A stretch of DNA of 64,000 bases from Rhynchopus sp. YZ270_cl-10 (lineage: Eukaryota). Positions within the stretch are counted from its first letter, which is position 1, and each line of letters opens with the position of its first letter. The stretch covers positions 1,488,001 through 1,552,000 of the forward strand of contig OZ037841.1 of assembly GCA_964035575.1 (NCBI GenBank), in the 5' to 3' direction. The translations under genes and the position numbers were made by a program. Positions 26 to 61,508 of the stretch are shown here, piece after piece. Below the pieces are notes generated by a model. That model worked only from the letters and a program-made list of their open reading frames with translations. It made no database searches and was not told where the DNA came from.

Positions 26-750
26 CAGGGGAGGAGCTTGGGGGTTAAATCGGGTCAGATTGACCCGATTTCCTTCGGCCCCATGGAAAAAAACGGGTCA
101 GGGCAAAAAAAAAAAAAAAAACTATAGATTTTTGAGGGGAAAATCCAAAAAATAGGGTACTCTACTTGTCGCATGAGGGGGTCTGAGAAGGATGAGGAAC
201 TACTATGTGACCCCACCGCGACGAGCACGAAGCTCAATGAAGGCAGAATGCCCTCAAACGCGCGCTCCACCCCGATCAAACCCGAACCCAAGAGGGATGC
301 CGAACTCGACCTAGCCGTTGGTTACTGGCGCGAGCTGACGATCCAGATATTGGATCAACTCGCTGGGTGACACACCAAAAGAGGGGCTCAGACAGTGACA
401 AGTGTTGCCGGGGGTACGGAACGCCCTCCGACGTTTGCTCGAAGGGGACACCTGCCCAGAGAGAGTACCTGAACTGGCGAGGGCCTACACACACATTCCA
501 CACCTCCATTGCGCAACCCTACCTTGATGACATCATCGCCAGTGTCAAGGGCAACATGCATTCCGCGGGGATGGTGCAACACTTGTGTATCATCAACGTG
601 TACTATTTTGTGAAACGCGCCTTCTCATTCTGCATGCGTTTGTCTTCACAATAGCTTTTCCGCCGTAGGCGGAAAAGCTCGGGACCTGACCCGATTTAAC
701 AGAATTTGACCCGATTTTGCCCCAAACCCATATTCCAAGCTCCTGCCCTG
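26..750. mobile_element. Non-autonomous hAT-type TIR element (725 bp) with GC-richer internal cargo
   Basis: TIRs CAGGGGAGGAGCTTGG (26-41) and CCAAGCTCCTGCCCTG (735-750) match 15/16. Exact 8-bp TSD TTTTAGGG at 18-25 and 751-758. Subterminal TGACCCGAT/GGGTCA repeats at both ends. Confidence 0.85.
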
Positions 751-7065: not shown

Positions 7066-7465
7066 GAGAATAAAAGGGGGTGGGGGAGGGCTTTTTCTGG
7101 ATCTGATAAACTTTTCTCTTCCGTGAGAAAGCATTTTTTTCAGCGTATTTTTTGGATCTGCGGGGAGGAGTGCACCCTATGTAGAGGTGTGTGTGTCAGG
7201 CTATGCAGCAGTCGCTGTGTTTTGGACAAAAAAAGATGGGGTGCGGAAAGGTGGGTGGCGGTTTCTTGTGTTTGAACATGGCGTTTGATGCAACAAGTAT
7301 TGTGAGAATGAACCGTAAAAAATGGGGTGAAACCGTTGCTGACTGTGGGAGGGATGTGAGTGGAGGGGGCTCTTTCTAACTGGCTTGGATGGGGGTGACG
7401 TCGGGGAGTGGTGTGGGGCAGTGCTCTCAAGATCCTCCACGTAGGGGAGGATATTTCCTCCAGGG

Positions 7466-8351
7466 CAGGGTTGTTCCTTGTTCTCGGGAAAAACAGCAAA
7501 ATTCTGGATTTATGTTCCCGTTTTTTTCCTTTTTTTGGGTGGGGTTTTTTGCCCTTTTTCGGGCTTTCCGAGCTCTACCCTCACTGTAGTGGGGTCATTT
7601 CGAGAAAATGGACAAGTTCTTGATTGATACAAATTTTGGTTACGACCACTAGTGAGTTGCTCACAATGCTAAATGAGTGTCAGAACTGTGATTCTGGGCC
7701 CACTTTAACCGCCCTTCGAAATTCAAAAAGGGGTCCCAAACCCGGGCGCGCTACACTCGCGCGGAACTTTTTGCAGCTTTGGTCTAGTTGCATTTTTGGC
7801 TGCAAAATGCAAGGGGACCCCCAAAGACGTTGGGAATATTATTTGGATGGGGCAGTGATTTTGTACCTGTATACACGCTCCCTCGCGGTAACCGCGTGCA
7901 TGCCAATGAAGTGCTCTCTGGGGTTCGATAACCCGTGGAACCAGTGCTTCCGCCGATGAACGGTGAGGCGTTGCACTTCTCTTTTTGCGGAGCAAAAAAT
8001 AATATAAATGGCGCCGCAGGCAAAAAATTTTGAGTACAGTGTAAAAATCTAGCTTCCAACGAACCCTTTTTTGTAGAGCAAAAAATGAAAAATGGCGCCG
8101 CAGGCAAAAAAAAATTGGGGGTACAGCCCTGACGGTGCAGGATTTTGTTGTCAATTTTTTTTTTCTTGCCCCCTGAAAACTCTTGCTTTTGAGAGTTTCG
8201 ACCATTTCACCACACTGGTGGTGTGTCACCTACAGTGAAACCCACTAGAAACCACAAGAAAGCCCCCCAAGGAAAAAAAGGAAAAAAAAAAAGGAAAAAA
8301 AAACTAAAATCCAGAATTTCATGTTCTCGGTCCCACTTAGGAACTTCCCTG
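7466..8351. mobile_element. Inner hAT-type element nested in the 7419-9074 element
   Basis: TIRs CAGGGTTGTTCC and GGAACTTCCCTG match 10/12. Exact 8-bp TSD CTCCAGGG at 7458-7465 and 8352-8359. Confidence 0.85.
7878..7985 (+). repeat. SINE-like dispersed repeat family C with B-box-like GGTTCGATAACCC and T-rich end
   Basis: Related copies at about 37556-37650, 50428-50478 (3' part) and 62165-62280, all on the + strand. Confidence 0.7.
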
Positions 8352-9152
8352 CTCCAGGGGCTTTTTTTTTTTTTTTTCAGGCTTTTTTGGTGGAGGATTT
8401 CCTCCATTTTTTTTTTTTTTTTGGCGGGCTCGGGTGGAGGATTATCCTCCTAGGGGTTTTATAGTGGGGGTCACTTTGTCTCCCCCGAGGGAGCCAATAT
8501 TTTCCCGAGCTTGTATGCACCGTCCAGGGCTGCACCTTAAAAAAAAATTTGCCTGCGGCGCCATTTTCATTTTTTGCTACTCAAAAAAAGGGTTCGCTGA
8601 GTGATTATGTGGTGTAAAAGGAAGCATTTTTACACCGTACCCTAATTTTTTTTCGCCTGCGGCGCCATTTATATTATTTTTTTTGCTCCGCAAAAAAATA
8701 GAGTTGGCAATGTCTTTGGATACCCTTGCATTTTGCAGCCAAAAAATACAACTTGGCCAAAGCTGCAAAAATTTTGCCATTTTTAAAAAAATGGCCCGCC
8801 GTTGCATCAGCCCCTGCTTCTGGAAGACGTATTGGTTTTGTACGGTTCGTAGAGCGTATGGTGCAAGAGAAAGGATTAGATTTCCGTTTTTTTTTATTAT
8901 TTCGCAAAATTGACTCGCCTCTCCGCTCTCCCCTGTCAGGGAGGCGCGCGCGAAGCGCGCGACGACCGCTTGTTGCGGGGGAAAATTTTTTTTTTTGGGG
9001 TTTTTTTTTTGCAAAAATGAAGCCTCCTCATTTCGAAAATTCTGCTTTTTTCGTGGAGGATCTTGAGAGCCCTGGTGTGGGGGGGTTTTTTTTCCTAATC
9101 TTTGTTTGTGAGGTGGCTAACGTACTTGCTGTGCTGCAAAAATATAAAAAAA

Positions 9153-9200: not shown

Positions 9201-9964
9201 AACACAACATTTGAGACTTTGCGCAGGCTTGGGATCATCTTACAAAAATTTTCTAACAAAGGGGAACAAAAGTAACTTGTGTATTAAGGGGAAAGGGGAT
9301 GGTTTTTTTCTTTTTTCTCGCGATTTTCTCGACAACATTTTTTTTGTTTTTTGTTTTTTTGAAAGTGTCTGCATCAACAATGTTTGACACAAAAATCAGA
9401 GCCATCTCGGCACAACATAAAATACAATCCCGATTGGGATCTTTCCCTTTACATGATAGGTGTGCACAGTAAGGGCACATGCACCTTTGAAGTTGTCTTT
9501 TTTTGTCACAACGAACCCGGTCTTTGGGTACAAACAAAGCCCTAAGATGACTCCTTTATTTTTTTTCCTAAGAGGACTAAGTACGCGAGGCTTCGGTTCA
9601 TCTTATGCTTTTATCTTCAAGGATGTGTGTGACGAGAAAGGTATATTCATGTTCGACATTTTCTTCTCTTTGTATCCTTGGGTTTTTCCTTTGATTTTCC
9701 AAACCCTGATAAGCTCAGCGTGAGGTCTAAACCCACCTCATTCATAGCTGTGCTTGCTGTCTTTGCGAAAAAAATGCGCGTATGAAATTGTGTTTTGCAA
9801 CAACTAAAACTGATGCAGTGTGCACTCGAAAACTATCAGGGGGGGTCTCAACATGTCGAAATTTCCGCATCGACAAAAAAAAAAAAATCGGCTTAATTTC
9901 GAGTTTTTTTTGTCGAAGGTTGAGACCCCTGACAATCGCCAAAAAAAAATAAATATGTTACCTA

Positions 9965-13847: not shown

Positions 13848-14411
13848 AGCAAGATCGACTATCGAGTGTTTTCACAGTTTTATATGTGGAAAATTATTTC
13901 CCCCAAAAAAAATTCCCAACTTTTTACAACGTTGGGGGTTCCCCTGGGGTAAAAGAATTGGTTCCGGTTTGTATGATGGAGTTGAAGTAAGAGGGCCTAT
14001 TATGTACCTATTATCCCTGGATAATAAGGTGTATCCCCTTCCATAGGCGTTTCTCGGACCCCCATATGGCATGTAGAGGTGCCCTTTTTTATGGGGGGGG
14101 TATGGTAGAGAAAGGAAAGAGATGATGTATGCATCTCTGGAAAAAGGCCTTTTGGAGAACGATACCTTAACCGATGCAATGCGAGAGCAGCAAAAATAAA
14201 ATGGCTGATTTTTTTCGTTTCAAATTATAGCTGTACTTCCTCAAACACCCTACACAGAAAACCACAAAAACCTACACAAAAAAACTACCGCTTTCCTCCA
14301 CCCCACCCCCCACCCCTTCTCCCACAATAACGGTGTAACCACACCTCCCCCACCTCCCCTTTCGGGGGGGAGGTGCCCCCCTCTTCCCCCCTTCCCTTTC
14401 CCTGATTTTCA

Positions 14412-17400
14412 ATGCTTTTCATTGCAGTATTTAATCAACTATTATGTTACGCAGCTGACCCTGTCGCTGAATATGAGGTTGTGGGTGCGACACATATGGC
14501 TAGCGGGTATTGTGACCCTTTGATATTTGGTTGGGGATATCTGGGGTTAGGGGAAGGTGAGGCTGGTCCGTTTCCTTTGGAGTCTGCAAAAACTAGGAGT
14601 GGGGTGGGGGGGATAGATTTGGATGGGTTCTCTGCGGCTACTTCAACGAATTTATCACTTTCACTTCGAGGACGTGGTGAGGTTTCGATAGGGGTTGGAA
14701 GGAAGACGGCGACGCATACTCACCTTATCACATATATTGACATTCGAGACGAAGTAGATCAGAACAGCTCCGCGAACGACAACGCCGCCGCCATGCTCTC
14801 TGTCGTCAAAGCAACCTACCTCCACAGCAGCGCCTCTCGTCTCTTTCTCGACCGAGACGACTATACCTATGATACTACCCCAGCCCCGGTCGACGCCTTC
14901 TTCTATTTCAGCTCTCCTGCACAATGGAAAAGCTATTTATCCTGCGGAACCGATTTATTGACAGTTACGTTGACGGATAGCACCTTATTTCCTAGACAGC
15001 TGGCGAATGATGGGATATTTGTCGCTTTTACGGATGTTTCAGATGCAAGCAGATCGGAGATCCTTTCGGAGGCATTTGTTTGGGACGTCTTTTTGTTTTC
15101 TCGCGATGGGATGGAAGGACTGCTTTGGGGACGGCAGATGCTTCCTCATCAGTCCACCTCCGATTTTTGCGAATCTGAGTATTCTTCCTCCCCGCAACCT
15201 ACACCTCATTCTGCCCCTTCCACTACAGTCTCCATCCACCGCATCACCCCAGCCGTCTGCGCACAACGCCTCCTCTACCTCCAAGTCAAAGTGAACACAA
15301 CAGATTCCTCCGTCATTTCATCAAAAATCATTGTCCTAGAAGGCGAAATGTCGCATGAATACTCCCCCGAAGGAAAAATTGTGTATGGTTTAACCAGTTG
15401 GTCGATGGGGGCAGAATCATTAAACCAAGATGAGGTAGATGCAGGGGAGGATCCGGGGGATGAGGGCTGTATCTTTTCTTGGGTGGAGTGTGATCAGAGG
15501 GCAACGGCGTTGAAATTTCATGCCTCGTTGTCGGAGGGGGCTGAGGCAGGGAACGTTCCGTTTTTGACAGTAGACCTCGTTGCTTCCGCAGAATTTCAAA
15601 AAGATGGTGACGAATCCTCCTGCGATGTTGTGGTCGAAGAGTTTCCTTCTCTCACCTTTCGTAAAATGCACATCGAGCGCGAATCTGTTTCGACAGAAAA
15701 CGAAGCGTATTGGACCTCCCATCCTGATCTTTTAGAAAACTCCGGGGTCGTGGAGGCGGTAGAAGGCGGTGGGGACTATCTGTTTCTCAAAAAAGTTGAT
15801 GTTCCGAAGATTAGCGCCTATAAAATTGCCGACATTTCGCTGTTCTCATATGTAAACACCACAACTACATCCCTCTCGAACGATCCTTCCCTTGAAGCCC
15901 CTTCAGTTGATTACACCCAAAACGCCTATAATGGAACGAACTATGATATCAGAATGCACTCTGCGCTGCATTCTTCGGTTCTATTTGTTGCATTTGACAG
16001 CAATACGACGGAAAGCAGTCTATCCACTGAGAGACTCTTCATGACCAGAATGCCAGTAAGCATTGCAGCCGAAAGCGAAATCCCGGAGTCACTTCAACAA
16101 TACACCTGCATTTTACCGGCAGGGTTGGACACAGAATACGTATCCTCTAAGTACGACACCATCATCGCTCGGCGTGAGAACGGAGAACACCTTCTCCGCT
16201 TCGATTTAGACAAAGACAATGACCAACTCTTTGACAAACAAGACCGCTTTCCGCTCGCATCTCGAGACACATGGGACAGAGATAACGACGGTGTTGCCGA
16301 TGAGGCTGACATATTTGATGCACGCTCTCTTACATCCTGCGAGAACGACATCCTCTACCGCACCGAAACCTGCATGGCTGACATCGAAATTATGTACATC
16401 ATATGGGCGATCTTCACGGTTATCGTTCTTTCTGTTGCGCTTTCGATAGGAAAATACAAAGAAACGCTGCTGAAGGAGGGCGACAAAGTGGGGACCCATC
16501 TCGAAGAAGACCAGGTCTATGAGGAAATGCTGGAGGAGGCAGAAACCGCAACCTTCCTCGAGCGCATGCAGGCCCTGGTCGACATCCGCAGTCGCGTCGA
16601 CAAATTTAACGCATTGGAAAGCCTTGTACAGTACTTTCTGTTGCTCCTGACGTTGGTCTCAGTTATTCTCGTTGTGGTGCCGTTATGGAACAAAACACAT
16701 CTGGACCAATCTACGCTCCACATCTTCGCATGGCTTGACCTCTACACAGCTTCTCTCTTTGCAATCGATCTCATCTTCCGGTGGGTCTACAGAGAAGATA
16801 GTACGATGACGTTTTGGGCGTTTTTTAAGGCAAATTGGTTTGACTTTCCTTCGTTGGTGTGCGATCTGCCGGGGCTGACTACGACAGGAACCTTTGATGT
16901 GTTGGTTGCGGCAAGGTTGTTGAGGTTACTGCGTATCTTCAAAGTGTTTAGGGTCATGCGTCTCTACAGAAAGGTGACCAATCAAAGCGCGTACGTCGCC
17001 TTGGTGGTAAATCATACGCAGTGGTTGGTGCCGATCATTGCGTTGCTGTTGTTGATCGCGGTGGCTGTGGTGATTAAAATTGTCGAGCAAGGTAGTCAAG
17101 AGAAGTTCGAATCCTATTGGAACTGCCTCTGGTTCTGCTTTGTCACTGCAACAACAGTAGGCTACGGCGATATGGTACCAATTCATTGGTTCGGACGTCT
17201 CCTGGCGTGCCTCCTTATGATTTGTGGTATTGGGATGATAGGAAACATTACTGCCCGGGTTTCTGAGAAAATCAGTCAAACTGGGTATCAACGTGCTCAA
17301 GAGAAAGAACGAAAGGAACGCCACGAAGACCACCCCGCAATAAAATTGGCGTTGTTGGAGCTGAGTGTGTCGTTTAACCCGCTTGTTATGTTGAAGGATA

Positions 17401-19226
17401 AGAGGAATGAGCATGTTGATGTTTTGTCGCAGCAATTTATGTCGCCGAGGTACCGTGATGCGGCGATCATGCGGCAAAACCACCGTATATTTGATGAGCT
17501 CGAAGGGAACAACAACAACAACAACAACACTAACAACAACAATGAGCACCCCCTTCTTGCTGCCGACCACGCATCTCCTCTCGTTGCCACACGAAACTCT
17601 CTAAACACAACCCGCCCCGCCAACTCCCCGCACTCCAGCAAGGAAAGCAATACCCGCGCCCCCTCCGCCTTCCACATCGACTTCTCCATCGACGACGGAT
17701 CCGACCTAACCGAAAGCGATGCGCAGTCTGGTGGCAGCTCTTTCGGCTCCTCCGCCGGCGCTGACGCTACTCAAGGAATCGTCGAAATCAGACGACTTTG
17801 GAGAGGAAAAGGGTTCTACGGTCGTATCATCAAAAACGCTTTCATCAGAGCAACTTCCTCAGCATTCAACGAACACATGAATGAAACCACCAAGGCCGTC
17901 CACGACAAATACATCCCCCCATCGGAGATCGCAGAAGCCCTCCACGCAGACCCTGATCTCAGAAGACTGCGCCGCAAGCTTACACAGGTCCAGGAGGCTG
18001 CCTTTGAGGACGTTCTTCTTCTCCTCCAAAAACCTGCCTATAAACACAAAATCATAACCTGGGATATCTTTGAACAAGAGTTGATTCAGTCGCAAGAATA
18101 CACCTACGCGGTTGCCGAGGATATGATCAAAAAAAACAAACAAATTGAATGGAACTGGGGGCGTTACAGTGATGATCACCTTGTTCAAAAATTACGAAAA
18201 TTTCGTGAAAACAGACCAGATGCGTTGCCGCAGTGCAAAGACAAGCTTTTTTTACTGCTTCTTCGATACAAACTGGATGAAACATACAAAGGCGTGACTG
18301 ATTGGGAGAAAATGTTTCTGAGGTTGAATTCTGTTATTTTCAAGAAACCGCGGAAAAATGAGTTGATTGTTGAAAAGGTATTTTCTGTTGGCTATTTCGA
18401 AGAAGGTGCGGGGGAGGAAGAGGACAACCCAGCAGAACGCGAAAGCATCTACGACTGGCAGGATCCTCTCGAATCGGTGTTTCATGAGATCGAAACGATT
18501 CTCCGGCAGCACAACGTCCATAACGTAGAGGGCTATCAAGAAATCCTTTTCGCCATTGAATCTATTGCCATCCAATTTGACCGCATCGAATGCACGAAAT
18601 GGGCGCTGCACCATTTGGAATGGGGGAAGCACTCAGAGGTCACTCTCATTCCTCGACCGCCTCTTTCGCTTGAAAAGGCGCGGACGAACATTGTCAACCC
18701 GCTTCTCCACTTCCCCAAGGCTATCCGCTGTAACTACGAGAACATTAACGGGGTATGCGCCGGGCTTCTTACGTTCGTTGAATATTCTGCAGCAGCCGCA
18801 GGGCGTGCGACTGCTGAGAGGGAAGATGACGACCTGATGCGGTTCTGTGAGAAGACGGCGTCATCTGCTTCGGAAGAGAAAGACGACGATGACGAAAAGG
18901 AAGAAGAACACTTACCGCTCACGGCACAGACCTTAAGCGGAATGTCCGACGACGACGACGAAGTACTCTGCATGGGCACGCGCTGTACCACACGCCGTAG
19001 GATCGGCCTAAGCGATACACACAAAAGCCTTGCGCTGGATGGTACCATGACCCAGATGGTCCCGCTCCTGGAGGATCCACGCGGCTTCTTTGAATGCCCA
19101 AAGCTCCACTACCGCCTCTGTGTTGACTGTGCAAAGGTCACCCACGCAGAAGGTGAGCACGACGGTGTCGAGGTGAAGTCGCAACGATCCGCAAAGTCTG
19201 GAAGTCGAAGTTCGATTATGTCGACG
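14412..19226 (+). CDS. Voltage-gated K+ channel-like protein, exon 1 (large ectodomain, extra TM, S1-S6, long C-terminus)
   Basis: Selectivity filter TTVGYGD, S4 RLLRLLRIFKVFRVMRLYR and six flanking hydrophobic helices. Asp-rich DKDNDQLFD/DRDNDGVAD repeats. Coding character ends at a GTATGT donor at 19227. Confidence 0.9.
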
Positions 19227-20007
19227 GTATGTCATTTTTTTTTCGTTTTTTTTTTTTGTTCCATGAACGAGACCAGGGTCCTAGCTTGGTTTTGGAAAAA
19301 AATGCCAAATCTGGGTCAGAATTTTTTTTTTGGGTCAGCAGAGGTTTTGGGCCTTGGGGGGCTTGTCTTGGCTTTTTTGGGTTTTCCGAGCTCTACCCTC
19401 ACTGTGGTGGGGTCATTTCAGAAAAATGGACAAGTTCTTGACTGATACAAATTTTGGCCACTACGACTAGTGAGTTGCTCACAACGTTAAGTGGAACGCT
19501 ACTATAACCATAAAAATCACTCCCGTTCATAGATCACCCAACACAAAATATATAAAATGGCGCCGCAGGCGAAAAAAAATAGGGTACGGTGTAAAAATGT
19601 AGCTTTTTACACCACAGAGTCACTCTACGAACCCTTTTTTGCGGAGCAAAAAAGGAAAAATGGCGCCGCAGGCAAAAAAAATTGGGTCCAGCCCTGGACG
19701 GTGCCGGATTTTTTTGTCGATATTTTTTTTCTTACCCCAGAAAAGGTGGTGGGCCCCCCCAAAGAGGGGAAAAAATCAGAATTTCCCAATTTCCAAATTA
19801 ATTAATTCCCTTTTTTTTTTTTTGATAAAACAACTTGTTGTCAATTCTAAAAAGATTGGAGGCAGCGCTGCAGGGCAAACAAAACGGATTGAAAAAAACA
19901 GAAGCTTGCTTGTTTCTTTGAGTACTCAATTAACCACAACAACCGTACTTCAGTTTAACACATTTTTTCACCTTTTTGTTTTCCCGGCTTTGAGCGCACA
20001 AACAAAA

Positions 20008-21018
20008 ATGTCGTTTCCTAGAGTGGACGAGATCGACTGGACTGATGTCCCCCGCGTTCAGTGGCCTTCTACACAGGAGGGTAAAAGCCCAACCACCACT
20101 TGCGTCTTCCCCTTGTGCGCAACTACACACAGGGAACCTACATCTTGCAAACGCTGTGGGGGGGGAACAAAGACAACGTGCTCAGAGTTTCTCAAGCTTC
20201 CCGAAGAGGAACGCGATGCATGGACGGAGGCCATCGGCAACCTCCCGGACAAGCTCATTTGCCCCCCGTGCTGTTATGCCATCCGTCAGGGGGCACCAGT
20301 ACCTGGAATGGCCGCCACAGAGTTGGTCGGTAACACAGACGACGAGTCTGTTCACAACCATGGGGTCAATCCCCAAGTCCCCAACATCGAGGAGCTGTTG
20401 GGGCAAGTCACCGATCCTGCCATGCAGGCCCTCATGACTATTATGATGCAGAGGATCACCGCTCCCGCTCAGACGGAAGCTGCGGCCCAACATCTCGCCG
20501 ACGAGGCAGAGTACAGCATCCCCATCGTCTCTACTTGGGCATGGGAGGAGCGGTCCAATTTGGGCAAAAGGGAGTTGCGCCGGAGCCTTGAGCATAGGTA
20601 CGGTAATCAGGTTCCAGAGGAGCCTGCAGCTGCCGGAGGAGGGCACGAGAAACGCGTCCTGCTGAGGATACTCGTGTGCCTCCTCCAGGGACAGACGAAC
20701 GATGCTATGCATCACGCAGTGTCCCGGCTCGAGTCCATACAGAAGAGCCACGCCATCCCTCAGAATAAGAGTGACTTCGTCGCCAGGCAAGCCGTAGCGA
20801 ACGCCTTCGAAACGCGGAGCTGGGCCAAGACGAGCGCTCTCTGGAACCTGGACCAATACCAGGCAGCGTGCCAAGACGCGGTTAAGGCAGCTGAAAAGTC
20901 ACCCAAACAGGACAACAAACGTGGAGCGGGACAAGCTTTTGGGAACTCCACGGGTACCAAGAAGCCGCGAGGGGGCGCACCGAAGAAGGACACGCCCCCG
21001 GACCAACAGCGCAAGTGA
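20008..21018 (+). CDS. Gag-like ORF1 with N-terminal Cys-rich (PHD-like) zinc finger
   Basis: ATG immediately after the 25-bp repeat. CVFPLC..H..CKRC..C..CPPC, helical middle, basic low-complexity C-terminus. Lies upstream of the YR. Confidence 0.65.
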   Translation: MSFPRVDEIDWTDVPRVQWPSTQEGKSPTTTCVFPLCATTHREPTSCKRCGGGTKTTCSEFLKLPEEERDAWTEAIGNLPDKLICPPCCYAIRQGAPVPGMAATELVGNTDDESVHNHGVNPQVPNIEELLGQVTDPAMQALMTIMMQRITAPAQTEAAAQHLADEAEYSIPIVSTWAWEERSNLGKRELRRSLEHRYGNQVPEEPAAAGGGHEKRVLLRILVCLLQGQTNDAMHHAVSRLESIQKSHAIPQNKSDFVARQAVANAFETRSWAKTSALWNLDQYQAACQDAVKAAEKSPKQDNKRGAGQAFGNSTGTKKPRGGAPKKDTPPDQQRK

Positions 21019-21099
21019 CACAATACGAAAACTCCTTCCCCGTCTTCCCTTCCACTATCTTCACCAACCCTTCTCCCAGCTCCCAGTCAACACCTCGAG

Positions 21100-22008
21100 A
21101 TGTGGATGCCACAACTGACCAATCGTCGGCCTCGCCTCATCGATTCCCCTCCACCAAACGCTACCCATCTTTACAACACCACACTTGCCCATCTTTCCTC
21201 CTGTTACAGGAGCCCCGACGCATTCCTTTCTGTAATTCGCCGGGGCGACCTTTTTTTCCAACAACTGAGGGTACAACTTCCGAGCATCTCACAGGACCTG
21301 GCCTTCTGCATGTGGATTACCCAACTGCACAAAGAAGGTCGGTTATCCACCAGGAGTGCTCTACAGTACCTCACTTGGCATACAATGTCAAAAAAACATA
21401 CAGTGGACGCCATGAGGCTCCACTTGTCCCACAACGTTCAAGAATACGAGCTACACGAGGCGAAAATGGAACGGCTAGTACCATACTCACAAATCGCGAC
21501 TTTCCTGAACAAAGCCACTGGTGCCATGCAGGCAGCCCTCAGCCTACAATTAGCCACGGGGTGCAGGTGTGTGGATCTGGTCAACCTCCGTGCAAACCAG
21601 GTGAAGAAGCTCAACTTGCATTCCAAAATGATGGTGACGTTCGTTGGAGGCAAGACCGATCGGACCAACAGCGGTCAGTCAATACTGATTCCCTTGGATC
21701 TCCCAGTGGCACAACCCTTCTTCTCGTGGACAGAGAAGGCTCGAGACCCCTCATCGAAACTTCTCCCGGCACTCACCAACAAGTCGTACAATGCCTTTCT
21801 AAAAAAGGGCCTCGCCACCACCTCCCACAAGATACGCACCAGCGTGTTGGACCATGTGTCCCAGTCCTTCGGACTGAACGTGAAGGGGGAGGAAGCAGCG
21901 CAGGCCCTGGGGCGCCACAAGAGCCCCTCCACCACGCGCCACTACACGCGACGCGAAACCTGGGCCAGCACGGTGAAGACGGCGCTTGGCACCGGAATAT
22001 TCAACTGA
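21100..22008 (+). CDS. Tyrosine recombinase (phage-integrase family)
   Basis: Catalytic set in order: ATGCR (R), GGKTD (K), HKIR (HxxR), LGRH (H), TTRHY (Y). Confidence 0.9.
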   Translation: MWMPQLTNRRPRLIDSPPPNATHLYNTTLAHLSSCYRSPDAFLSVIRRGDLFFQQLRVQLPSISQDLAFCMWITQLHKEGRLSTRSALQYLTWHTMSKKHTVDAMRLHLSHNVQEYELHEAKMERLVPYSQIATFLNKATGAMQAALSLQLATGCRCVDLVNLRANQVKKLNLHSKMMVTFVGGKTDRTNSGQSILIPLDLPVAQPFFSWTEKARDPSSKLLPALTNKSYNAFLKKGLATTSHKIRTSVLDHVSQSFGLNVKGEEAAQALGRHKSPSTTRHYTRRETWASTVKTALGTGIFN

Positions 22009-22541
22009 GTACGCGCCCTTTCTTACGCTCTTTTCTTCTGTACGATTATTCGGCAGCCTGGCTGGAACGTCACGGACCTTCCTTCCAGAAGGCCGCGTAC
22101 GAAGGGATCATCGACCCCGCTCCCACCTCCCACATCAACGAGACCTTACTTTGCGCAGACTTTCCCCATTTGAGAATCAACTTCGCGTGGATACAACCTG
22201 ACATGCTCAACACCCTTGCAACCATCACAGACGCCAAGACAAACCTAGGTCCCCCCAACAACAAACTAACCGCGCATACCCAGGAACTCATCTCCTCTAA
22301 TTTTGCTGAGGCTACACCGAGACAGGTTCCCAGGGTCTGGGTGGGAAACGGAGCTTTCTGCGTGGAGAAGTCTAAGAAGGGCCATCTGAGATTTATCCTC
22401 AACTGCAAACAGGCGAACGGCTGGACGAAACAGGGACCCGACCTACCACCTTGCCACCTCCCGTCGTACGCAGCGATCAGGGATCTTCTTCTGGCAAACA
22501 GTCATTTTCAGGAGCTTGATTTTCGAGCACCCCGGCTTTGA
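22000..22541 (+). pseudogene. N-terminal part of a DIRS/VIPER-type reverse transcriptase, truncated at motif A
   Basis: AFCVEKSKKGHLRFILNCKQAN, LPS, FQELDFR in the 21015-22541 frame. The frame stops inside the 25-bp repeat; no YxDD or RNase H. Confidence 0.75.
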
Positions 22542-22736
22542 GCGCACAAACAAAAGACCCGATCTTTTTTTTCGTGGGTCGCGACCCAGGCACTTGGGTC
22601 AGCTTGACCCACTGACCCAGGCAAGCTAGGACTCTGACGAGACGCATCTTTTCAAGTTGTCTTTTGCGGAATTTGCAACGAAAACAAAAAAAACAAAATG
22701 TCATTACGTTAGCATTTCAAAAACGCATCACAACAG

Positions 22737-22940
22737 AACGGCTTCATACGGCGACACACCTGCCCGTTTGACCATGCAGCCTCGATCGACCCTGACGAGC
22801 AGAGATCTGTCGTATCCTCCGCTGGACGCGACACTGACTCAGACCACATCGATCGCGACAACATAGGCGGCAACACAGTCGGCGCGAAGCACCTTCTCTC
22901 CGCAGAAAAGTTGGAGAAAATGGCACAACGCACTTCCTGA
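22737..22940 (+). CDS. Predicted terminal exon 2 of the K+ channel gene (NGFIRRHTCPF...MAQRTS*)
   Basis: GC-richer open frame starting exactly after CAG, in the phase required by the 19227 donor. TGA at 22938-22940. Confidence 0.65.
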   Translation, partial: NGFIRRHTCPFDHAASIDPDEQRSVVSSAGRDTDSDHIDRDNIGGNTVGAKHLLSAEKLEKMAQRTS

Positions 22941-23290: not shown

Positions 23291-24370
23291 CAGGCTATTT
23301 CCTAAATCTGAGTTTCGATTTTAGGATTTGAGATTTTGGAAATGCCGCACTTTTTTTACCGACCAAATTTTCCCGGTTGCCGCACTTTTTTTTCGCCTAA
23401 GGGGGAAGGTAGGTAGGGCACTTCTGTCTGGGAAAAAGTGACCAGGGAAAAAAATGTTGGGGTCCCGTGCTCCCAAATGTGCGAAATAAGCAAGAAATAA
23501 GCATTTTTGCACACACGTGTATAAAAAAAATCCGCCTCCGGCGGGGTTCGTTTTCGAGGATTTTCAGAGATATCACGATATGAGGATTCCTTAAGAAACC
23601 ATTGAATCTTATTCAGAATAATAGTACCTTAGAGTGTTTTTGGACACACATATGACCCCACCGTGGAGAGCAATCGGCTCGTGCAATCAAAAAAAAGCGG
23701 AGAAAAGGTACAAAAAAAAAAGTTGGGTACCGTGCGCCTGCGGCGCTTCTTGTTCCCTACCAGTTTCTACAGGCAAACACTTGCCCCCTTTACCTTATAC
23801 TGACGGATTTTGACCAAAACCAAGAACTTGTCCATTTCGGCAAATTGACCCCACCACACAACGCACGGATTCCGGAAATGCAAATGCCGGTGTTTTCGGG
23901 CATTTTCATGTTTCAAGACGTCAGGATCAGGGAGAGAAAATTTGGTTGTGGGATTTACCTTGGCCCTCTTTACCCTACGTGGGTTTTGACCAAAACCAAG
24001 AATTTGGCCATTTCGGCAAAGTGACCCCACCACAGCGCGGGCGGATTCCGGAAATTCCAATCGCGGTATGTTTTGGAGCTGAAAACCCACTGTTTTTTTC
24101 AGGGGAAAAATTGCTTCCAAATGTCGGAATTTTCCGAATTTTCCTGAAAATGACCCTTGTTTACGAGTATGGGTTCATATTTTGCGAAAATTTAAGTCAC
24201 TAAATTTTTGTCCATTTTTCCGAATATGCCTGACCACAAGCCGGGATTGGCTCGGAAATGCAACAAAACGCCCTCTTGGGCGGAAAAAAACCTCACGAAA
24301 ATGCCGCACTTTTTTTGCATTTCTTTTTCGAAATTTTGGAAAAAACGCCCCAGAGTTAGGAAATAGCCTG
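23291..24370. mobile_element. Non-autonomous hAT-type element (1080 bp)
   Basis: TIRs CAGGCTATTTCCTAAATCTG and CAGAGTTAGGAAATAGCCTG match 19/20. Exact 8-bp TSD TTATGTGC at 23283-23290 and 24371-24378. Internal duplication of about 80 bp at 23806-23885 and 23984-24062. Confidence 0.9.
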
Positions 24371-24961
24371 TTATGTGCTCTGCCTGGGCAGTAGTGTCTA
24401 GCGTTGCCACGTTCGTCTGTTGCGCACGAGAATGAAGAGAGACTCCAATGTGCGTCTGTTTCTCAAGAGTTTTTGGTGTTCTATTTGTGTTTTGTTTGGA
24501 AGCGACTCCCCATTTGACATGTGAACACTTGCCTCCTCAGAGTATGTGTTCATCAAACCATCAAAGGGTTGTTCTAGCAGGTCTTCATTGGTAGAGTCAC
24601 CTGGTGCAGGTCCTTGGTGACACACTCCTTATGAAGATGTGCATCAGCGTCCATTTAGTTGCAGGCGGTACAGCGTGCACCTCGTTGCTACCCATGTACG
24701 AAGAGTGCAGGGTGTCGTGCCGTCCGCAACCGACAGATCTGCGCTCTATTTTTGTTTTTGTTTTCTGTAGACATGCGTGTGTTCACCCATTTAAAAAAAA
24801 CGCACCCACAAATAAGCCCGAGTCTTTTGCTTTCTCAGTACCTACCCTACCCCCGTGGACGACGTGGCCAGCAACACCCTCTTCGGGTTCAGCTTGGATG
24901 AACAGAGTGCCAGGAGCGTCCCCATTCATCAGAACACCACACCACACAGAGAGACACAACA

Positions 24962-26599
24962 ATGCAGCTGTATGTCCTGTACCGTGGGGAACAACACCCT
25001 TTCGAAGTCGATGAGAGTATGGGAGAAGACCCAATAGAATACGTGTGTAGTCAGGTGGCGGCTGCAGTGGGGATCGAAGCAGATACCTTCACATTGCTGT
25101 TCGATGGGAAACCTCTGCGCGACCGAGACGACATGATGCAACTGAGCGAGGGCAACACGATCGAGATGACTCTGCGGGAGAGTCAATGCCCGACAATGGA
25201 TCTCTCTTGGTCCAACGCCCTCAGCAACAGAGGGGATGGCTTCCTCGCGCACCACACTTGGTTGACGACAATCACTCTTCCTCAAGAAAGCGACGTCGAG
25301 GATATAGGCAACGACTTCCTGAAGGGGTGCAGTGGGTTGACGACAATCAATCTCTCTGGTCTCAGCAAGGTCAAGTACATAGGGCATGGCTTCCTCGCGG
25401 AGTGCACCTCATTAACAACGATCACACTGCCTGAAGAGAACGCTCTCCAGAAGATAGGCAACAAGTTCATGTCGGGGTGCAGTGGGTTGAGGACAATCGA
25501 TCTCTCTGGTTTCAGCGCTGTCAGGAGCATAGGGGATGGCTTCCTCGCGAAGTGCACCTCATTGTCAACGATCACACTGCCTGAAGAGAGTGCTGTCACG
25601 GAGATAGGCAACGACTTCCTGTGGGAGTGCGGTAGGTTGATGACACTCGATCTGTCTGGTCTCAGCTCTGTCACGGAGATACAAAACAACTTCCTGTCGT
25701 GGAGTGGGTTGACGGAAATCAATCTCTCTGGGTTCAGCACTGTCACGGAGATACACGACAACTTCCTGTTGGGGTGCAGTAGGTTGAGGACAGTCGATCT
25801 GTCTGGTCTCAGCGCTGTCATGAACATAGGGGATGGCTTCCTGGGGGGGTGCAGTGGGTTGACGGCAATCAATCTCTCTGGTCTCAGCTCTGTCACAGAG
25901 ATACAAGACAACTTCCTGTCGTGGAGTGGGTTGACGGAAATCAATCTCTCTGGGTTCAGCACTGTCACGGAGATACACGACAACTTCCTGTTGGGGTGCA
26001 GTAGGTTGAGGACAGTCGATCTGTCTGGTCTCAGGCGTGTCACGGAGATACCAGACAACTTCCTGTTGGGGTGCAGTAGGTTGAGGACAGTTGATCTGTC
26101 TGGTCTCAGCGCTGTCATGAACATAGGGGATGGCTTCCTGGGGGGGTGCAGTGGGTTGACGGCAATCAATCTCTCTGGTCTCAGCTCTGTCACAGAGATA
26201 CAAGACAACTTCCTGTCGTGGTGCAGTGGGTTGACGGAAATCAACTTCGCTGGCCTCAGCAAGGTAACCAAAATAGGGACTAGCTTCCTCACGAACTGCA
26301 CCTCATTGACAACGATCACACTGCCTGAAGAGAGCGCTGTCACGGAGATACGGGGCCGCTTCCTGTTGGGGTGCAGTGGGTTGACGACAATCGATCTTTC
26401 TGGTCTCAGCTCTGTCAGGAGCATAGGGGATGGCTTCCTCTCGAACTGCACGCTGCCATCGAACGAAAGGAAAATAACAGTGAAGCTCACCGGCAGCAGC
26501 GACGTGGTGTCTGCGCGAGTGCTGTCGGGATTGGACGGAACGAACGTTGTTGAGATGGTTCCCCCAACAGAGGCAACACTTGATTCCCCTGTACGTTGA
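24962..26599 (+). CDS. Ubiquitin-like domain plus leucine-rich repeat protein (BspA/LRR_5-like 24-25 aa units)
   Basis: Ubl-like LLFDGKPLRD..LSEGNTIEM. Many repeats of FLxGCSGLTxIxLSGLSxVTEIxDN. Confidence 0.85.
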   Translation: MQLYVLYRGEQHPFEVDESMGEDPIEYVCSQVAAAVGIEADTFTLLFDGKPLRDRDDMMQLSEGNTIEMTLRESQCPTMDLSWSNALSNRGDGFLAHHTWLTTITLPQESDVEDIGNDFLKGCSGLTTINLSGLSKVKYIGHGFLAECTSLTTITLPEENALQKIGNKFMSGCSGLRTIDLSGFSAVRSIGDGFLAKCTSLSTITLPEESAVTEIGNDFLWECGRLMTLDLSGLSSVTEIQNNFLSWSGLTEINLSGFSTVTEIHDNFLLGCSRLRTVDLSGLSAVMNIGDGFLGGCSGLTAINLSGLSSVTEIQDNFLSWSGLTEINLSGFSTVTEIHDNFLLGCSRLRTVDLSGLRRVTEIPDNFLLGCSRLRTVDLSGLSAVMNIGDGFLGGCSGLTAINLSGLSSVTEIQDNFLSWCSGLTEINFAGLSKVTKIGTSFLTNCTSLTTITLPEESAVTEIRGRFLLGCSGLTTIDLSGLSSVRSIGDGFLSNCTLPSNERKITVKLTGSSDVVSARVLSGLDGTNVVEMVPPTEATLDSPVR

Positions 26600-56484: not shown

Positions 56485-57482
56485 CATACAATGCAACGAG
56501 GCCGAGTCGGCCTCGCCAAGGCCTGAAAATAAATACTCAGGCGTGCCTGAGGCGTACTCGGGATTAGTTACGTTTAAGTACGCCTCAGGCACGCCTGAGT
56601 ATATTTATATTTCTTACCAGCATTTGGGTCATGAACAAAAAAGTATTTACCCCCAAATTTTGTGGTTTTCGATTCAGAGGTAGCAAAATCTTTCAAATGC
56701 GGGGTCGCACGATGAAAAATGTGCCTGTGGGCCGAGCGAGTCGAAAAAATGAAAAGGGTTCGCTAAGCTTTGGTGCTGATGATATATATTTTGGTGGTAC
56801 CTTCGGGTACTTCATTGATTCAAGAATCATTGGAAACAAATCTCGGGGGTGCTTTTCGACTGGGTCCCTTCCCTCTAACACTAGAGAGATCCCATCGAGA
56901 TCCCAGAATTTTACACAGGCCTCCTTGATCCACAGACCACAGCTCTATTTTAAGTACAACTATGGGGTGACCAAAGAAATTTTTTACACATACCCGAGGT
57001 ATGACTCATTTTCTGCGAAGCCTCTTTTTAGGAGGCAGTTTACTGTAAGCAGTGAACATGATATTTTTCGACAGCGGACACCGAAAGTTCATTTCAGCAC
57101 ATTTCAGGGGGCGGAGGAAATACATGGCATGCCTTAGAAACATGATGACCTGTGCATAATAATTTTATATATCAGCAGAAATATGAAACCGGGTATACTT
57201 TCCCCTGATTTTTGGTACACACTTAAAGTCACGCATATTTTGCTAAAAAAATTGTCCGACCCCGGATTTTTTTCAGATCGCTCCGGAAATGGATCAGAGG
57301 CCCTTTTTGCGGGGAAAAAATACACACCAGGTGCCTGAAACGCAAGTATGCGTTGATATATACTCAGGCGTGCCTGAGGCGTACTTAAACGTAACTAATC
57401 CCGAGTACGCCTCAGGCACGCCTCAGATATATTTTCCAGATATGAGTATTTTCAGGCGTACCCGGCCTCGTTGCATTGTATG
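56485..57482. mobile_element. 998-bp TIR element with nested palindromic subterminal modules
   Basis: Perfect 20-bp TIR CATACAATGCAACGAGGCCG. AAGGAA duplicated at 56479-56484 and 57483-57488. A 68-bp palindromic module at 56534-56601 is repeated, inverted, at 57361-57428. Confidence 0.9.
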
Positions 57483-58328
57483 AAGGAATGGTAAAAAAGT
57501 TTTCAAAACACAACCAACCCCAATCGTTAGGATTTCTACTACTTGAACACAATAAACACCTGAACAAAAAACAAAATCGTGAAAAAAGACGAAAGTGATC
57601 GTTTTTTTAAGCCTCTGTAAATTGGTTTCACGAAATACCAAAAAGGCCTCTGGATAAGAGCATGTCTTTCATGCGAAAACCATGTTGCATTTCTTTATTA
57701 TTTTCCTCTCGACCCATTTCCCTTTCCATGATCTCAAATTGTAATTGGGGTTTACTCCGGAGTCGGCAGGACTCCGGAGAACTACCATCTATGGTATACC
57801 TAATTGTTCGCCACAGTTCACTTTATTTTGCTTTGTGAATGCGAAAAATTTCCCACTAAAGCGAAATGTGAATGAACTATTGCTATTAGGTTTCACATTG
57901 GACCCTGTGACGATGTCCCAGTGCTATCGGTTGAGTGGCCAGGGCAGCGTCGTACGAATCAGCAACAACGTATGAATGTCGAGTACATATTGTTTCTGGG
58001 TTTGCTAGCTAGACATACGATGATGGGTGTAGCCCGAGGCTGTACACTGGTTACGCCCGATATTTGTGTCCAGCGAGAACAGTGAATCAGAGATTAGAGT
58101 TATTATTTACCCCCCCGTGGTTCACAGTATTGACGCCTCTGTGAACTGAAATCATTTGAGACAAATAATGAGAACTGGTCCTTTTTTTTCCTCCACAACC
58201 ATCTGAGGTTTTACCGCCTCAAAACAAAATCACACAATACACTGCTCTCCATCCCACCCATTATTGCCTATTGTCATTGCTCTCTCTTTCTCTCTCTCTC
58301 CAAACCTACTAGTTTTCTTTGTGGTGAG

Positions 58329-61300
58329 GTGAGGCAGCCGGTGCAGAAAACGATCGCAGCCCCGACGACGAAATACTCGACAGGTGCAGCACCCCCTCGA
58401 CAGGTGGAGCTGGCCCGCCTGGCGAATATGTCTCTGGAGCTCCAGATTCAACTAAAGAGACTGGCGAATGGGGGGTTCACCGTGATGGAGCACAAGACCT
58501 ACTGCCTGTGGGCATCGACACTCCGGAAATGCAAGGAACTGCGTGTGCGTGACCTGTCTGTGGACGAACTTCCCCTGGGCATAGCAGAGCAGCTGACGCT
58601 AGCAGCGGACCTCCACACTTCCTCTGCGACACTGGCGAGTGACCTGGGCAGGGACAATCGAGTCTACAGGGAAAAGCAACTGAAGCTGAAGGCGGTGCAC
58701 AACTTCGACGTGGACCGGAAGAAGCTCACGGCCTTCTGCAGGGGTACCCTGCCGGACGATCTGCTGGCTGTGGCTAGAAGAGACGGGACCCTGACGGCCA
58801 ACGCACAAGAGATGGATGCCATCCTCCAGGAAGAGTGGAAATCTGTATTCCAGCTCTACCGCGAGTGCCCTGAACCGGAGTATGACGACTTTGATGCTGT
58901 GTTTGGGAAACATGTAGCGAAGCACAACATGGATTTGCTCCCTCTCACTGGGGAGGACCTGGACCGCGTTCTGCAGAGTAAGAAGAAGTCAGGCGCATGT
59001 GGTGTCGATGGGTGGCGCATGGGTGAGCTGAAGCGCCTTCCTGTGGTCCTGCTGAATGCGTTTGCCACAACGTTCAACGAGATCGAAGAATCCGGCACGT
59101 GGCCTGAAGCGTTGCTAACTGCGATCGTGACTCTCACTCCAAAGGGAGAGGGAAAGGACCCGCTGGACCACCGCCCGATCACCGTGACGAGCAGTGTCTA
59201 CAGACTCTGGGCGTCAGCACGAGTACGTAGTATCCAGAAGTGGCAAGAAACCTGGGTTCACAAGGACCAACACGGCTTCCGCCCTCGCCACGGGGCTCAC
59301 AACGTCCTGTTCGACATCTGCACGCAGCTGGAAGACGCACTGTCTGGCGGAGAACCGCTGTACGGCCTGGCACTTGACTTTGCTAAGTGCTTTGACCGTG
59401 TCCCCCAGAAGCTTACCCTCGAGCTCGCAGCACGACTAGGGCTACACCCCCGCATTCTGCAGCCGCTCCGCACCATGTACGAGCAACTTCAACGTAGGTT
59501 CCAGCTTCCACTTGGCGTGGGTACCCCGTTCAGAGTGACGAACGGCATCCTCCAAGGATGCCCCATCAGCGTCGTCTTGATTAATGCGCTCGTCGCAGTG
59601 CTGCTGAAGGACCTGGACAGCTGCAAGAACACCTGCTCACGTGCGTACGCGGACGACATCACCCTCCTGTCACGGAAGTCGATGAACAGCTTAGAGCCAT
59701 GCCTGCGCATTGTGGAGAGGTTTTGTGCCATCACCGGAATGAAACTTAACGACACCAAAACCGTTGCATTTGGATCACGTGAGAGCTTCACCAGCACTCT
59801 TGTCTCGAACACAGGTCACAGGTACAAAACACTGGTGAAGGTCAAGATCCTAGGGGTCTACCTCTACTGCTCGAAGCACTCTCGACGCTCCTCTCCGGAA
59901 CGAGTCCGCAAGGCCATTGCAGCCCTGCAACGCCTACGATGTATGCCGCTGGCTTTCTACCACAAGTATAGAATTGTGTCAGAATGCATCCTCCCGGGTG
60001 CGCTGTATGAGGTCCCGTACGCTCTGCCCTCGCAGTCTAGCTTGAAGGAACTCTCCACCGCCGTCAACACCTGCCTCTGGGGCAGTGACTATGGGACACG
60101 CGCAGGCCTCGCAATACGCACCGTTTTATTGAAGAGCCACCGCACTGACCCGGCTGCCATCATCTGCAACCGGTCCATGAACGTCGTGCTTGACCACATA
60201 GCATTTGACGCAACACTGAGAGAACGATGCCTGTCGATACACAAGAGGTACAACGCAGGAGGAGGCTGGGACTTCCGCCCCCACGGGCCGGTCGGCAACA
60301 TGACCTCCACTAGCATACTGACAGGCGTGAGATGGTGTGACGACCTAACAACCGTTACGGAGCTCTCGAGTGCCCCCGTGGAAGAAGAGAAGACACACGC
60401 CCTAGGTCTTCTCGCGCCAGGTGAACGACACCACGCCATTCGCGAAATCGTCCGACGACAGAAGTTCACAGATCTTGCCTTGGACAGACCGACTTACGAC
60501 GGCGCTCAATACGGTGTCAACCTCGCCGACACCACGTACCTGCACGACCAACTGCAGTGGTCCCACCCCCTGCTAGCTTACCGCCTCCGACGTATCATCT
60601 GCGATGGGATACTCTACGCGCACCCTACGGTGCTGTGCCTATACGAGTCAACAAAGAGAGGTGGCATACACCTCGAAGTGAATCAGTGCCCCTTATGCCT
60701 CACACCAACCTCCGGGCTGGCGAAGCACCTGCTGTGGACTTGCCCGCACACTGTGTCTGCTAACGTGAAGGAAGCGCACCGCCCTCTCCTCGACAGGATC
60801 GGCCCGAACACCCCGAGTTGCCTGGCTATGCATGGCATAGCTCCCACGAACACGCCCAAGCACGTAGTAACCGACATGCAGAGATACCTGCTGGACGTCA
60901 CCACCGCAGTAGATGATCACCTGTCCTCGCGGACGACCACAGCGCCTGCACGCCACCCATGGCGTATGGACTTTGAAGTGTTCGATGCGCCCCCATACCA
61001 GGAGGCCATCTACCGGCAGCTCGCCCCTTTCTTTGGGAAGGACGATGATCCGAGATGCAAGCAGAAGCGCCGCGAACTGAAGCAAATGCTCCTATGGGCC
61101 TCCTCCCTGAAATGGAGCACCGCCAACCTGCCTGTGACATGCGTGGAACTTGCCATTGACCTGGAAATTTTCCACAGGATCTACGTTCTCCGGCCAACCT
61201 CTAACATTAGAGAACGGGCCGCCGCCTTGCGCACATTGCTCAACAAGCTTCACCGCCTGTGCAAAGCCCTTGGGATTCAAAACCCATTTCCTGCATCTGC

Positions 61301-61508
61301 CATCTCCTCCTCACGGGGCCTCCGGTCCATTGGCGCACCCGGACTTATTGGCTACGACCGTCGCCCAGTTTTTACGTACCCGCGCTACACTATGCACATG
61401 CTCGAACACGTCATCGTACGTGCCAAAATTACGAACTCCGGCTGGGGAAATGACATCATCCCTGACAACAAACTTGTAGAAGCCAGCGCAGCTGAAGCTG
61501 TGCGATAA
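58329..61508 (+). CDS. Non-LTR retrotransposon ORF (reverse transcriptase plus C-terminal CCHC finger), 5'-truncated
   Basis: GVDGW, RPITV, QHGFRP, LDFAKCFD, GILQGCPIS, YADD, GMKLN..KT, KILG; CPLC..HLLWTC. No endonuclease domain visible. Confidence 0.92.
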   Translation: MRQPVQKTIAAPTTKYSTGAAPPRQVELARLANMSLELQIQLKRLANGGFTVMEHKTYCLWASTLRKCKELRVRDLSVDELPLGIAEQLTLAADLHTSSATLASDLGRDNRVYREKQLKLKAVHNFDVDRKKLTAFCRGTLPDDLLAVARRDGTLTANAQEMDAILQEEWKSVFQLYRECPEPEYDDFDAVFGKHVAKHNMDLLPLTGEDLDRVLQSKKKSGACGVDGWRMGELKRLPVVLLNAFATTFNEIEESGTWPEALLTAIVTLTPKGEGKDPLDHRPITVTSSVYRLWASARVRSIQKWQETWVHKDQHGFRPRHGAHNVLFDICTQLEDALSGGEPLYGLALDFAKCFDRVPQKLTLELAARLGLHPRILQPLRTMYEQLQRRFQLPLGVGTPFRVTNGILQGCPISVVLINALVAVLLKDLDSCKNTCSRAYADDITLLSRKSMNSLEPCLRIVERFCAITGMKLNDTKTVAFGSRESFTSTLVSNTGHRYKTLVKVKILGVYLYCSKHSRRSSPERVRKAIAALQRLRCMPLAFYHKYRIVSECILPGALYEVPYALPSQSSLKELSTAVNTCLWGSDYGTRAGLAIRTVLLKSHRTDPAAIICNRSMNVVLDHIAFDATLRERCLSIHKRYNAGGGWDFRPHGPVGNMTSTSILTGVRWCDDLTTVTELSSAPVEEEKTHALGLLAPGERHHAIREIVRRQKFTDLALDRPTYDGAQYGVNLADTTYLHDQLQWSHPLLAYRLRRIICDGILYAHPTVLCLYESTKRGGIHLEVNQCPLCLTPTSGLAKHLLWTCPHTVSANVKEAHRPLLDRIGPNTPSCLAMHGIAPTNTPKHVVTDMQRYLLDVTTAVDDHLSSRTTTAPARHPWRMDFEVFDAPPYQEAIYRQLAPFFGKDDDPRCKQKRRELKQMLLWASSLKWSTANLPVTCVELAIDLEIFHRIYVLRPTSNIRERAAALRTLLNKLHRLCKALGIQNPFPASAISSSRGLRSIGAPGLIGYDRRPVFTYPRYTMHMLEHVIVRAKITNSGWGNDIIPDNKLVEASAAEAVR

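Follow-up and report, generated by a model that had tools for sequence, protein, structure and literature searches.

The composite element and the intron around it

The window, by which is meant the whole 64,000 nt stretch of DNA that was analysed, carries a 3363 bp element with the ends of a DNA transposon and, inside these, the reading frames of a tyrosine recombinase (YR) retroelement. The element appears, from the predicted splice sites, to lie within an intron of an ion-channel gene of a marine protist. The features are, in order:

19227-22736 (+): predicted GT-AG phase-0 host intron, 3510 bp, from sequence only (GT at 19227, AG at 22735-22736)
19267-19273 (no strand): left copy of the target-site duplication (TSD), ACGAGAC, read in the sequence
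19274-19288 (+): left TIR, 15 bp, read in the sequence; end common to other copies (the unique flank contig stops 27 bases inside)
19289-19810 (+): left arm of the MITE, in which there are subterminal GGGTC motifs and blocks that recur in the MITE at 7466-8351; its summed contig depth is very high
19811-20007 (+): ~200 bp block present in empty shells, at least the last 30 bp of which also precede a second gag copy; left boundary approximate
19983-20007 (+): copy 1 of the 25 bp direct repeat, directly adjoining the gag ATG
20008-21018 (+): intact ORF of 336 aa, called gag-like by its position alone
20895-22541 (+): third frame, overlapping the YR, RT-like over its last ~170 codons (Atlas lead to RVT_1; presumed RT motifs)
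21019-22008 (+): tyrosine recombinase ORF, intact, with catalytic R, K, R, H and Y (PF00589, E 1.5e-6; alignments; tree)
22531-22555 (+): 25 bp direct repeat, copy 2, its junction within a unique contig that reaches 22559
22556-22636 (+): 81 bp that form the right end of the MITE and contain GACCC/GGGTC motifs and, at 22622-22636, the right TIR; in three runs a unique flank contig has its start at 22610
22637-22643 (no strand): right copy of the TSD, read in the sequence

The predicted splice would join a 1607-codon ion-channel frame (14406-19226; PF00520, PF07885) to a 67-codon last exon (22737-22940), and the predicted intron without the element and one copy of the TSD is 140 bp. The window frames with Pfam matches are all on the + strand, as expected of polycistronic gene clusters. 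At 24902-26599 (+) there is a BspA-type leucine-rich repeat protein with an N-terminal ubiquitin-like domain. The frame at 58134-61508 (+), of 1124 codons, has a reverse transcriptase domain (PF00078, E 2e-24) and is probably a non-LTR element; by BLASTP it is unrelated to the RT of the cargo. There is also a short dispersed repeat of ~35-40 bp ending TCATCTTA, with 8 copies (9235, 9598, 28818, 46893, 50050, 50659, 51247, and 61547).

The two 15 bp TIRs, the left of which reads CAGGGTCCTAGCTTG, match at 14 of 15 positions, and the 7 bp duplication ACGAGAC lies directly outside them. Such a pair is above chance, since none of 20 block-shuffled windows yielded a 14/15 TIR pair with a TSD of at least 7 bp, while a 13/15 version was present in 2 of the 20. 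The termini, duplication, and length given in the first-pass annotation are thus borne out, as are the MITE internal blocks that it described in the shell: the left-arm blocks are 88.5% identical over 122 bp and 79% over 201 bp to the cargo-free element at 7466-8351. It had also placed the end of the retroelement about 80 bp from the right TIR, which needs correction, as sequence specific to the retroelement extends to 22530, which leaves 106 bp to the right end of the element.

The left TIR is similar to the TIR of the element at 26-750, and GGGTC/GACCC motifs are clustered near both shell ends. Since the left-arm blocks and the TIR resemble those of neighbouring elements with 8 bp TSDs, the shell is placed with the hAT- or P-like MITEs, with hAT as a putative label. 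With its short TIRs that start CAGG, its repeated subterminal motifs, its lack of coding capacity of its own, its high copy number, and its long TSD, the shell is like such MITEs, but it is unlike them in that the TSD is 7 bp, not the 8 bp expected of a hAT MITE, and in that there is no transposase family match among the 19 window frames scanned. P and hAT elements have TSDs of ~8 bp (PMC3706591, in part), and 8 bp is also the length of the duplications at the three further CAGG-ended elements of the window (26-750, 7466-8351, and 23291-24370). The element at 7466-8351 is apparently nested in a larger repeat cluster at ~7440-8780. An inverted repeat at 56523-57439, with 82 nt arms that are 91% complementary and 753 nt apart, is possibly another TIR element.

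The retroelement cargo

The order of the frames, gag-like, YR, and RT with the YR and RT frames overlapping, is that of VIPER/TATE, taking the gag by its position and the RT on weak evidence. The first-pass annotation recognised gag-like, YR, and partial RT ORFs; of these the YR is upheld by its match to PF00589, the gag-like frame is named for its position, and the RT, having no Pfam or PDB match, is the weak member. The gag-like ORF has no convincing Pfam family match and no Atlas match.

In the YR alignment the catalytic R, K, R, and Y are invariant in all 33 rows, the H being nearly so. The nearest proteins are from Diplonema papillatum (35-39% identity), with others from D. ambulator and Flectonema. 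In a tree of 37 rows, from which short and partial matches were left out and in which there is no named VIPER/TATE reference, the YR of the cargo falls within an 8-row clade of Diplonema and Flectonema proteins with support of 98/95, which makes a diplonemid host likely. The YR profile search likewise reached no named VIPER or TATE protein. Among viral contigs, none of the 91 pattern matches encodes a relative.

The assignment of the third frame to RT is weak. The RT-like query gives a 0.90 match in the Atlas to a cluster in which 16% of members have RVT_1, and 10 of the 10 best family matches are in one family or clan. What we take to be RT motifs in this frame were recognised by eye. Among longer proteins the RT fragment matched only the window's own protein, and its single-sequence model has a pLDDT of 35. 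The frame breaks at the first catalytic-Asp motif, and its stop codon falls within the second 25 bp repeat. A complete RT and RNase H are absent, as the frame ends at 22541, about 170 codons after the YR, and the cargo cannot retrotranspose alone. There are no stop codons in the three cargo frames where ~6 would be predicted under 5% neutral decay (P 0.002), which indicates that the cargo is recent.

Copies of the shell, the cargo, and their junction

An exact 25 bp direct repeat that is absent from the first-pass annotation bounds the cargo, at 19983-20007 and 22531-22555. It can be extended in neither direction and has a chance expectation of 5e-9. Copy 1 runs up to the base before the gag ATG, copy 2 starts at the break in the RT-like frame, and the last 81 bp of the shell follow copy 2. 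The composite without the cargo and one repeat copy is 815 bp. A resemblance of the 25-mer to the end of another MITE, at 9515-9544, was discarded, its score of 28 being below that of a chance match in coding sequence (32). A metagenome match to the repeat motif (L001) has 25-28 bases in common with it and no coding similarity, and was set aside as chance.

Copy 1 is the end of a block of ~200 bp. The block contains a pyrimidine tract (19963-19982) and an AG (19993-19994) 13 nt ahead of the ATG, a candidate splice acceptor. It starts at ~19811-19826 in six of the long contig pieces listed, although a T-run alone may account for the common start near 19811. In VIPER/TATE the 5' end is an A repeat, 73-381 bp long, and no TSD is made (PMC6681497, PMC12278014, both in part). 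The block, with its pyrimidine tract and AG, fits such a leader and is a candidate for the 5' repeat or leader of the retroelement. Where VIPER-like elements have the split direct repeats A1 ... B1-A2-B2, the composite shows a 25 bp direct repeat with no B repeat or internal complement, and the empty shells show no separate B repeat.

Depth and joints were taken from the contigs of 5 of 12 public sequencing runs (labelled here X1, X2, and so on), mapped to the window. The depth of the cargo is that of the window's own contigs: about 100 against 98-122 in X1, and 87-157 against 105-141 in X4. A unique 2199 nt contig spans 20361-22559 in X1 with 0 differences, and in X2 it reaches at least 22550. 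Over the shell the summed contig depth is 6e4-6e5 in X1, which is several hundred to several thousand times above the cargo and flanks, summed depth not being a copy number. Of 57 joints, 15 were listed, and 12 of these skip the cargo, passing from 19818-19984 to 22530-22573. Nine of the 12 continue at least 8 bases beyond the 25-mer into the right end, so that the empty shells have one 25-mer; no single contig of the runs holds a complete empty shell.

The unique flank contigs stop at 19300 (X1) and begin at 22610 (X1, X3, X4), at both ends with 4 flank bases left in a 31-mer. This suggests, roughly and on the assumption of 31-letter words and uniform flanks, ~120 (40-570) shell copies with identical ends. 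In run X6, which has hardly any cover of the host gene or cargo, a multi-copy contig equals 19296-19578 with 0 substitutions in about 284 nt, and this shell is therefore young. An assembly artefact was rejected, since each of the four junctions lies within a run contig; their linkage on one molecule is given by the window and the matching TSD.

The first-pass annotation left two readings, either retroelement sequence within a resident member of a MITE family or a gag-YR cassette spread by a transposase in trans. The single-copy cargo and the plentiful empty shells agree with the former. They speak against the latter, as do the other relatives of the retroelement, which are located in unique sequence. 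A single-copy composite with empty shells and free retroelements occurring separately had been named there as the result that would tell against co-mobilisation; this is what the run contigs contain, and a co-mobilised class I/II family is therefore unsupported. From the single-copy depth and unique contigs, the same shell and cargo do not recur at several loci with different TSDs, and the composite has very probably not spread as a family.

There is, however, a second gag copy, paralog A, with the same junction. It starts at the equivalent of 19978, and 29 of 30 shell bases match ahead of the ATG, 30 bp being the extent of its known upstream sequence. After the ATG there are 21 differences in 207 nt, without gaps, a divergence of ~10%. 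It is single-copy in X2, X3, and X4, and has a depth of ~23 against ~100 in X1. This quarter depth in X1 may be a polymorphism between samples or an assembly effect. Paralog A was rejected as an allele, as the flanks are at 1x depth and not at the sum of both copies. Comparison of paralog A with the gag of the window gives 27 listed differences; 11 of them are synonymous, where 25% would be expected, a weak excess (P 0.048). The gap-free divergence, the synonymous excess, and the intact window frames would together suggest that both copies diverged as working retroelements, likely while attached to the same sequence. Because the ~10% diverged paralog A has the same shell/ATG junction, the association of the retroelement with the shell block is not a one-off, and random one-off nesting is too simple; one older transposition of a composite is a residual possibility.

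Paralogs B and C have patchy matches to the YR. Paralog C is in a unique contig of 9.9 kb, in which its match is preceded by 2.8 kb of unique sequence, and appears to be outside any young shell. A 119 nt piece of gag (20260-20378, 5 differences) is at 5-6x depth in X1, X3, and X4, and is not among the X2 pieces listed. Its loose ends contain a 10-mer with a single occurrence in the window, at 19909, and a 7-mer that follows 4 bp later there, at 19923, and is also found elsewhere; further out there is weak similarity. This is a hint that cargo was amplified by a related shell.

Origin of the composite

The composite is real and for the most part ordinary nesting, with one unexplained feature, the common junction. 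The explanation that is favoured, held to be somewhat probable, is that this is one copy of an abundant ~815 bp non-autonomous TIR element holding a single-copy, RT-truncated gag-YR-RT fragment, which entered through the ~200 bp block common to the MITE family and the 5' end of the retroelement. A DDE transposase acting in trans would have put the shell into the pre-existing small intron. The block would be the A-type repeat or leader of the retroelement; an ancestor of the MITE family would have acquired it a single time, and it would have multiplied along with the MITE. At this copy, a break within the block might then have been repaired by copying retroelement DNA or cDNA, from gag through YR into RT, and rejoined 25 bp back; alternatively, a full element might have recombined in through the block and later lost its 3' part. 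Both routes would yield the 25 bp repeat and the abrupt end of the RT, and break-copying with rejoining 25 bp back would cover repeat and truncation in one step. The resulting composite, with both TIRs kept, could be moved in trans. Recent copying predicts a near-identical donor unless this was lost, and none is seen in the run contigs (cargo depth 1x), which counts against it.

The block could instead be purely MITE sequence, with the YR lineage repeatedly integrating at the 25 bp site of the MITE family, as for Tx1L in Tx1D or TATE in telomeric repeats. Such a preference would account for the base-exact junction common to two copies 10% apart, and there are precedents in TATE, which inserts at one relative position within telomeric repeats (PMC6681497, in part), and in Tx1, which inserts into a non-autonomous DNA transposon (PMC4494074, in part). 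However, the element would then start at its ATG, without a 5' repeat, and the RT break would have to coincide exactly with the start of the repeat. Given that VIPER/TATE have 5' A repeats and produce no TSD, an element that starts at its ATG does not fit, nor does a 25 bp TSD made by the YR, and paralog C has 2.8 kb of unique sequence upstream; this explanation is considered unlikely. Another reading, considered distinctly unlikely, is that a cut-and-paste transposase acts in trans on a gag-YR cassette with a dead RT, in which case paralog A and the copy in the window would be two transposed copies of one composite. The cargo is enclosed by both TIRs and the TSD, its left junction is common to paralog A, and the 119 nt gag piece, at 5-6x between two motifs 4 bp apart in the shell block, hints at amplification driven by the shell, but the cargo is single-copy and its intact frames argue against long neutral decay. 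The left arm has 0 substitutions in 284 nt against the multi-copy contig of another run, yet paralog A is at least 10% different, and among the paralog pieces listed there is none for 22186-22530 or for the right junction.

A one-off random nesting or capture, with paralog A derived from an old segmental duplication, would agree with single-copy cargo and abundant empty shells, and the introns of Diplonema commonly contain transposon pieces (PMC10161547, in part). It is nevertheless quite improbable, as there is no second diverged copy of the host flanks in the difference table, a random fragment would seldom begin at an ATG, and the intact frames and gap-free divergence indicate coding constraint. 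A further arrangement draws on the crossover cores of YRs, which are 6-8 bp long and lie between inverted repeats: the TIRs would be the binding sites of the YR itself and the 7 bp duplication its crossover core, so that the shell would be the retroelement termini and the empty shells SIRE-like derivatives. The duplication is indeed 7 bp where the three neighbouring CAGG-ended elements have 8 bp, and SIRE is a repeat-only derivative of VIPER (PMC6681497, in part). This is highly improbable, since there is a plain relationship between the TIR and internal blocks and the elements with 8 bp TSDs at 26-750 and 7466-8351, and a joint from right end to left end is absent among the 15 listed of 57.

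The favoured explanation can be extended, with low probability, to a YR retroelement and a cut-and-paste MITE family that have a common terminal module: the MITE would carry the leader and the trans-splice acceptor within it to sites numbering in the hundreds or thousands, the retroelement would use these as landing pads and re-enter by recombination, and the transposase would then move the cargo, at which the 119 nt gag piece at 5-6x depth hints. If true, class I and class II elements would be in a lasting partnership in diplonemids.

The target repeat of Tx1L is ~23 bp. Xenopus Tx1L in Tx1D is a retroelement at a set site within a non-autonomous DNA transposon (PMC4494074, PMC1950540, both in part), and the cargo may be comparable, but Tx1L belongs to the non-LTR elements and has a targeting endonuclease, while the enzyme here is a YR and the copy is truncated. 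For insertion at a set site, as in Tx1L or TATE, there are just the two copies with a common left junction, and paralog C is apparently outside a young shell. The shell, with captured coding DNA between TIRs, is like the Pack-TYPE non-autonomous DNA transposons (PMC8903248, in part), and unlike them in that the cargo is a retroelement, not a host gene, and the composite is not amplified. DIRS-1 is self-targeting (PMC5633606, in part).

In its gag-like, YR, and RT order, its overlapping YR and RT, and its euglenozoan host, the cargo is like VIPER/TATE, the YR retrotransposons of kinetoplastids, and as for VIPER and SIRE the putative repeats of the element are also present as an abundant short element (PMC6681497, PMC12278014, both in part). 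One Bodo copy has the order A1 ... B1-B2-A2 (PMC6681497, in part). Unlike VIPER/TATE, the cargo has its RT cut at the first motif, no RNase H, and no A1/B1-A2-B2 set to be seen, and it is located inside a TIR element with a TSD. A YR element within a diplonemid MITE is nowhere described in the limited literature surveyed, which is weak evidence. Nested or captured transposon sequence is common, and the lineage here is poorly surveyed. What is added is a diplonemid clade of YR elements in VIPER order, hitherto undescribed, together with several MITE families that have CAGG ends. Site choice by VIPER-like elements is poorly known; if the block turns out to be either a terminal repeat of the retroelement that a DNA transposon has amplified or a target that the retroelement prefers, it would give a testable handle on this choice.

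TATE-like ORFs have already been reported in Diplonema (PMC10161547 and its supplement, in part). D. papillatum also has a tandem array of 2.5 kb units, each with a 283 aa ORF of unknown kind (PMC10161547, in part). The cargo unit here is 2548 bp and the YRs ~270 aa, an agreement in size that may be chance. Two of the D. papillatum YR relatives (P0002 and P0008) are present as identical proteins on 4 and 6 contigs, so that the family has been recently active there, though annotated as hypothetical. A second multi-copy family in D. papillatum (the P0044 cluster and P0069) has the YR at the end of proteins of 760-1000 aa, one of which carries N-terminal ankyrin repeats.
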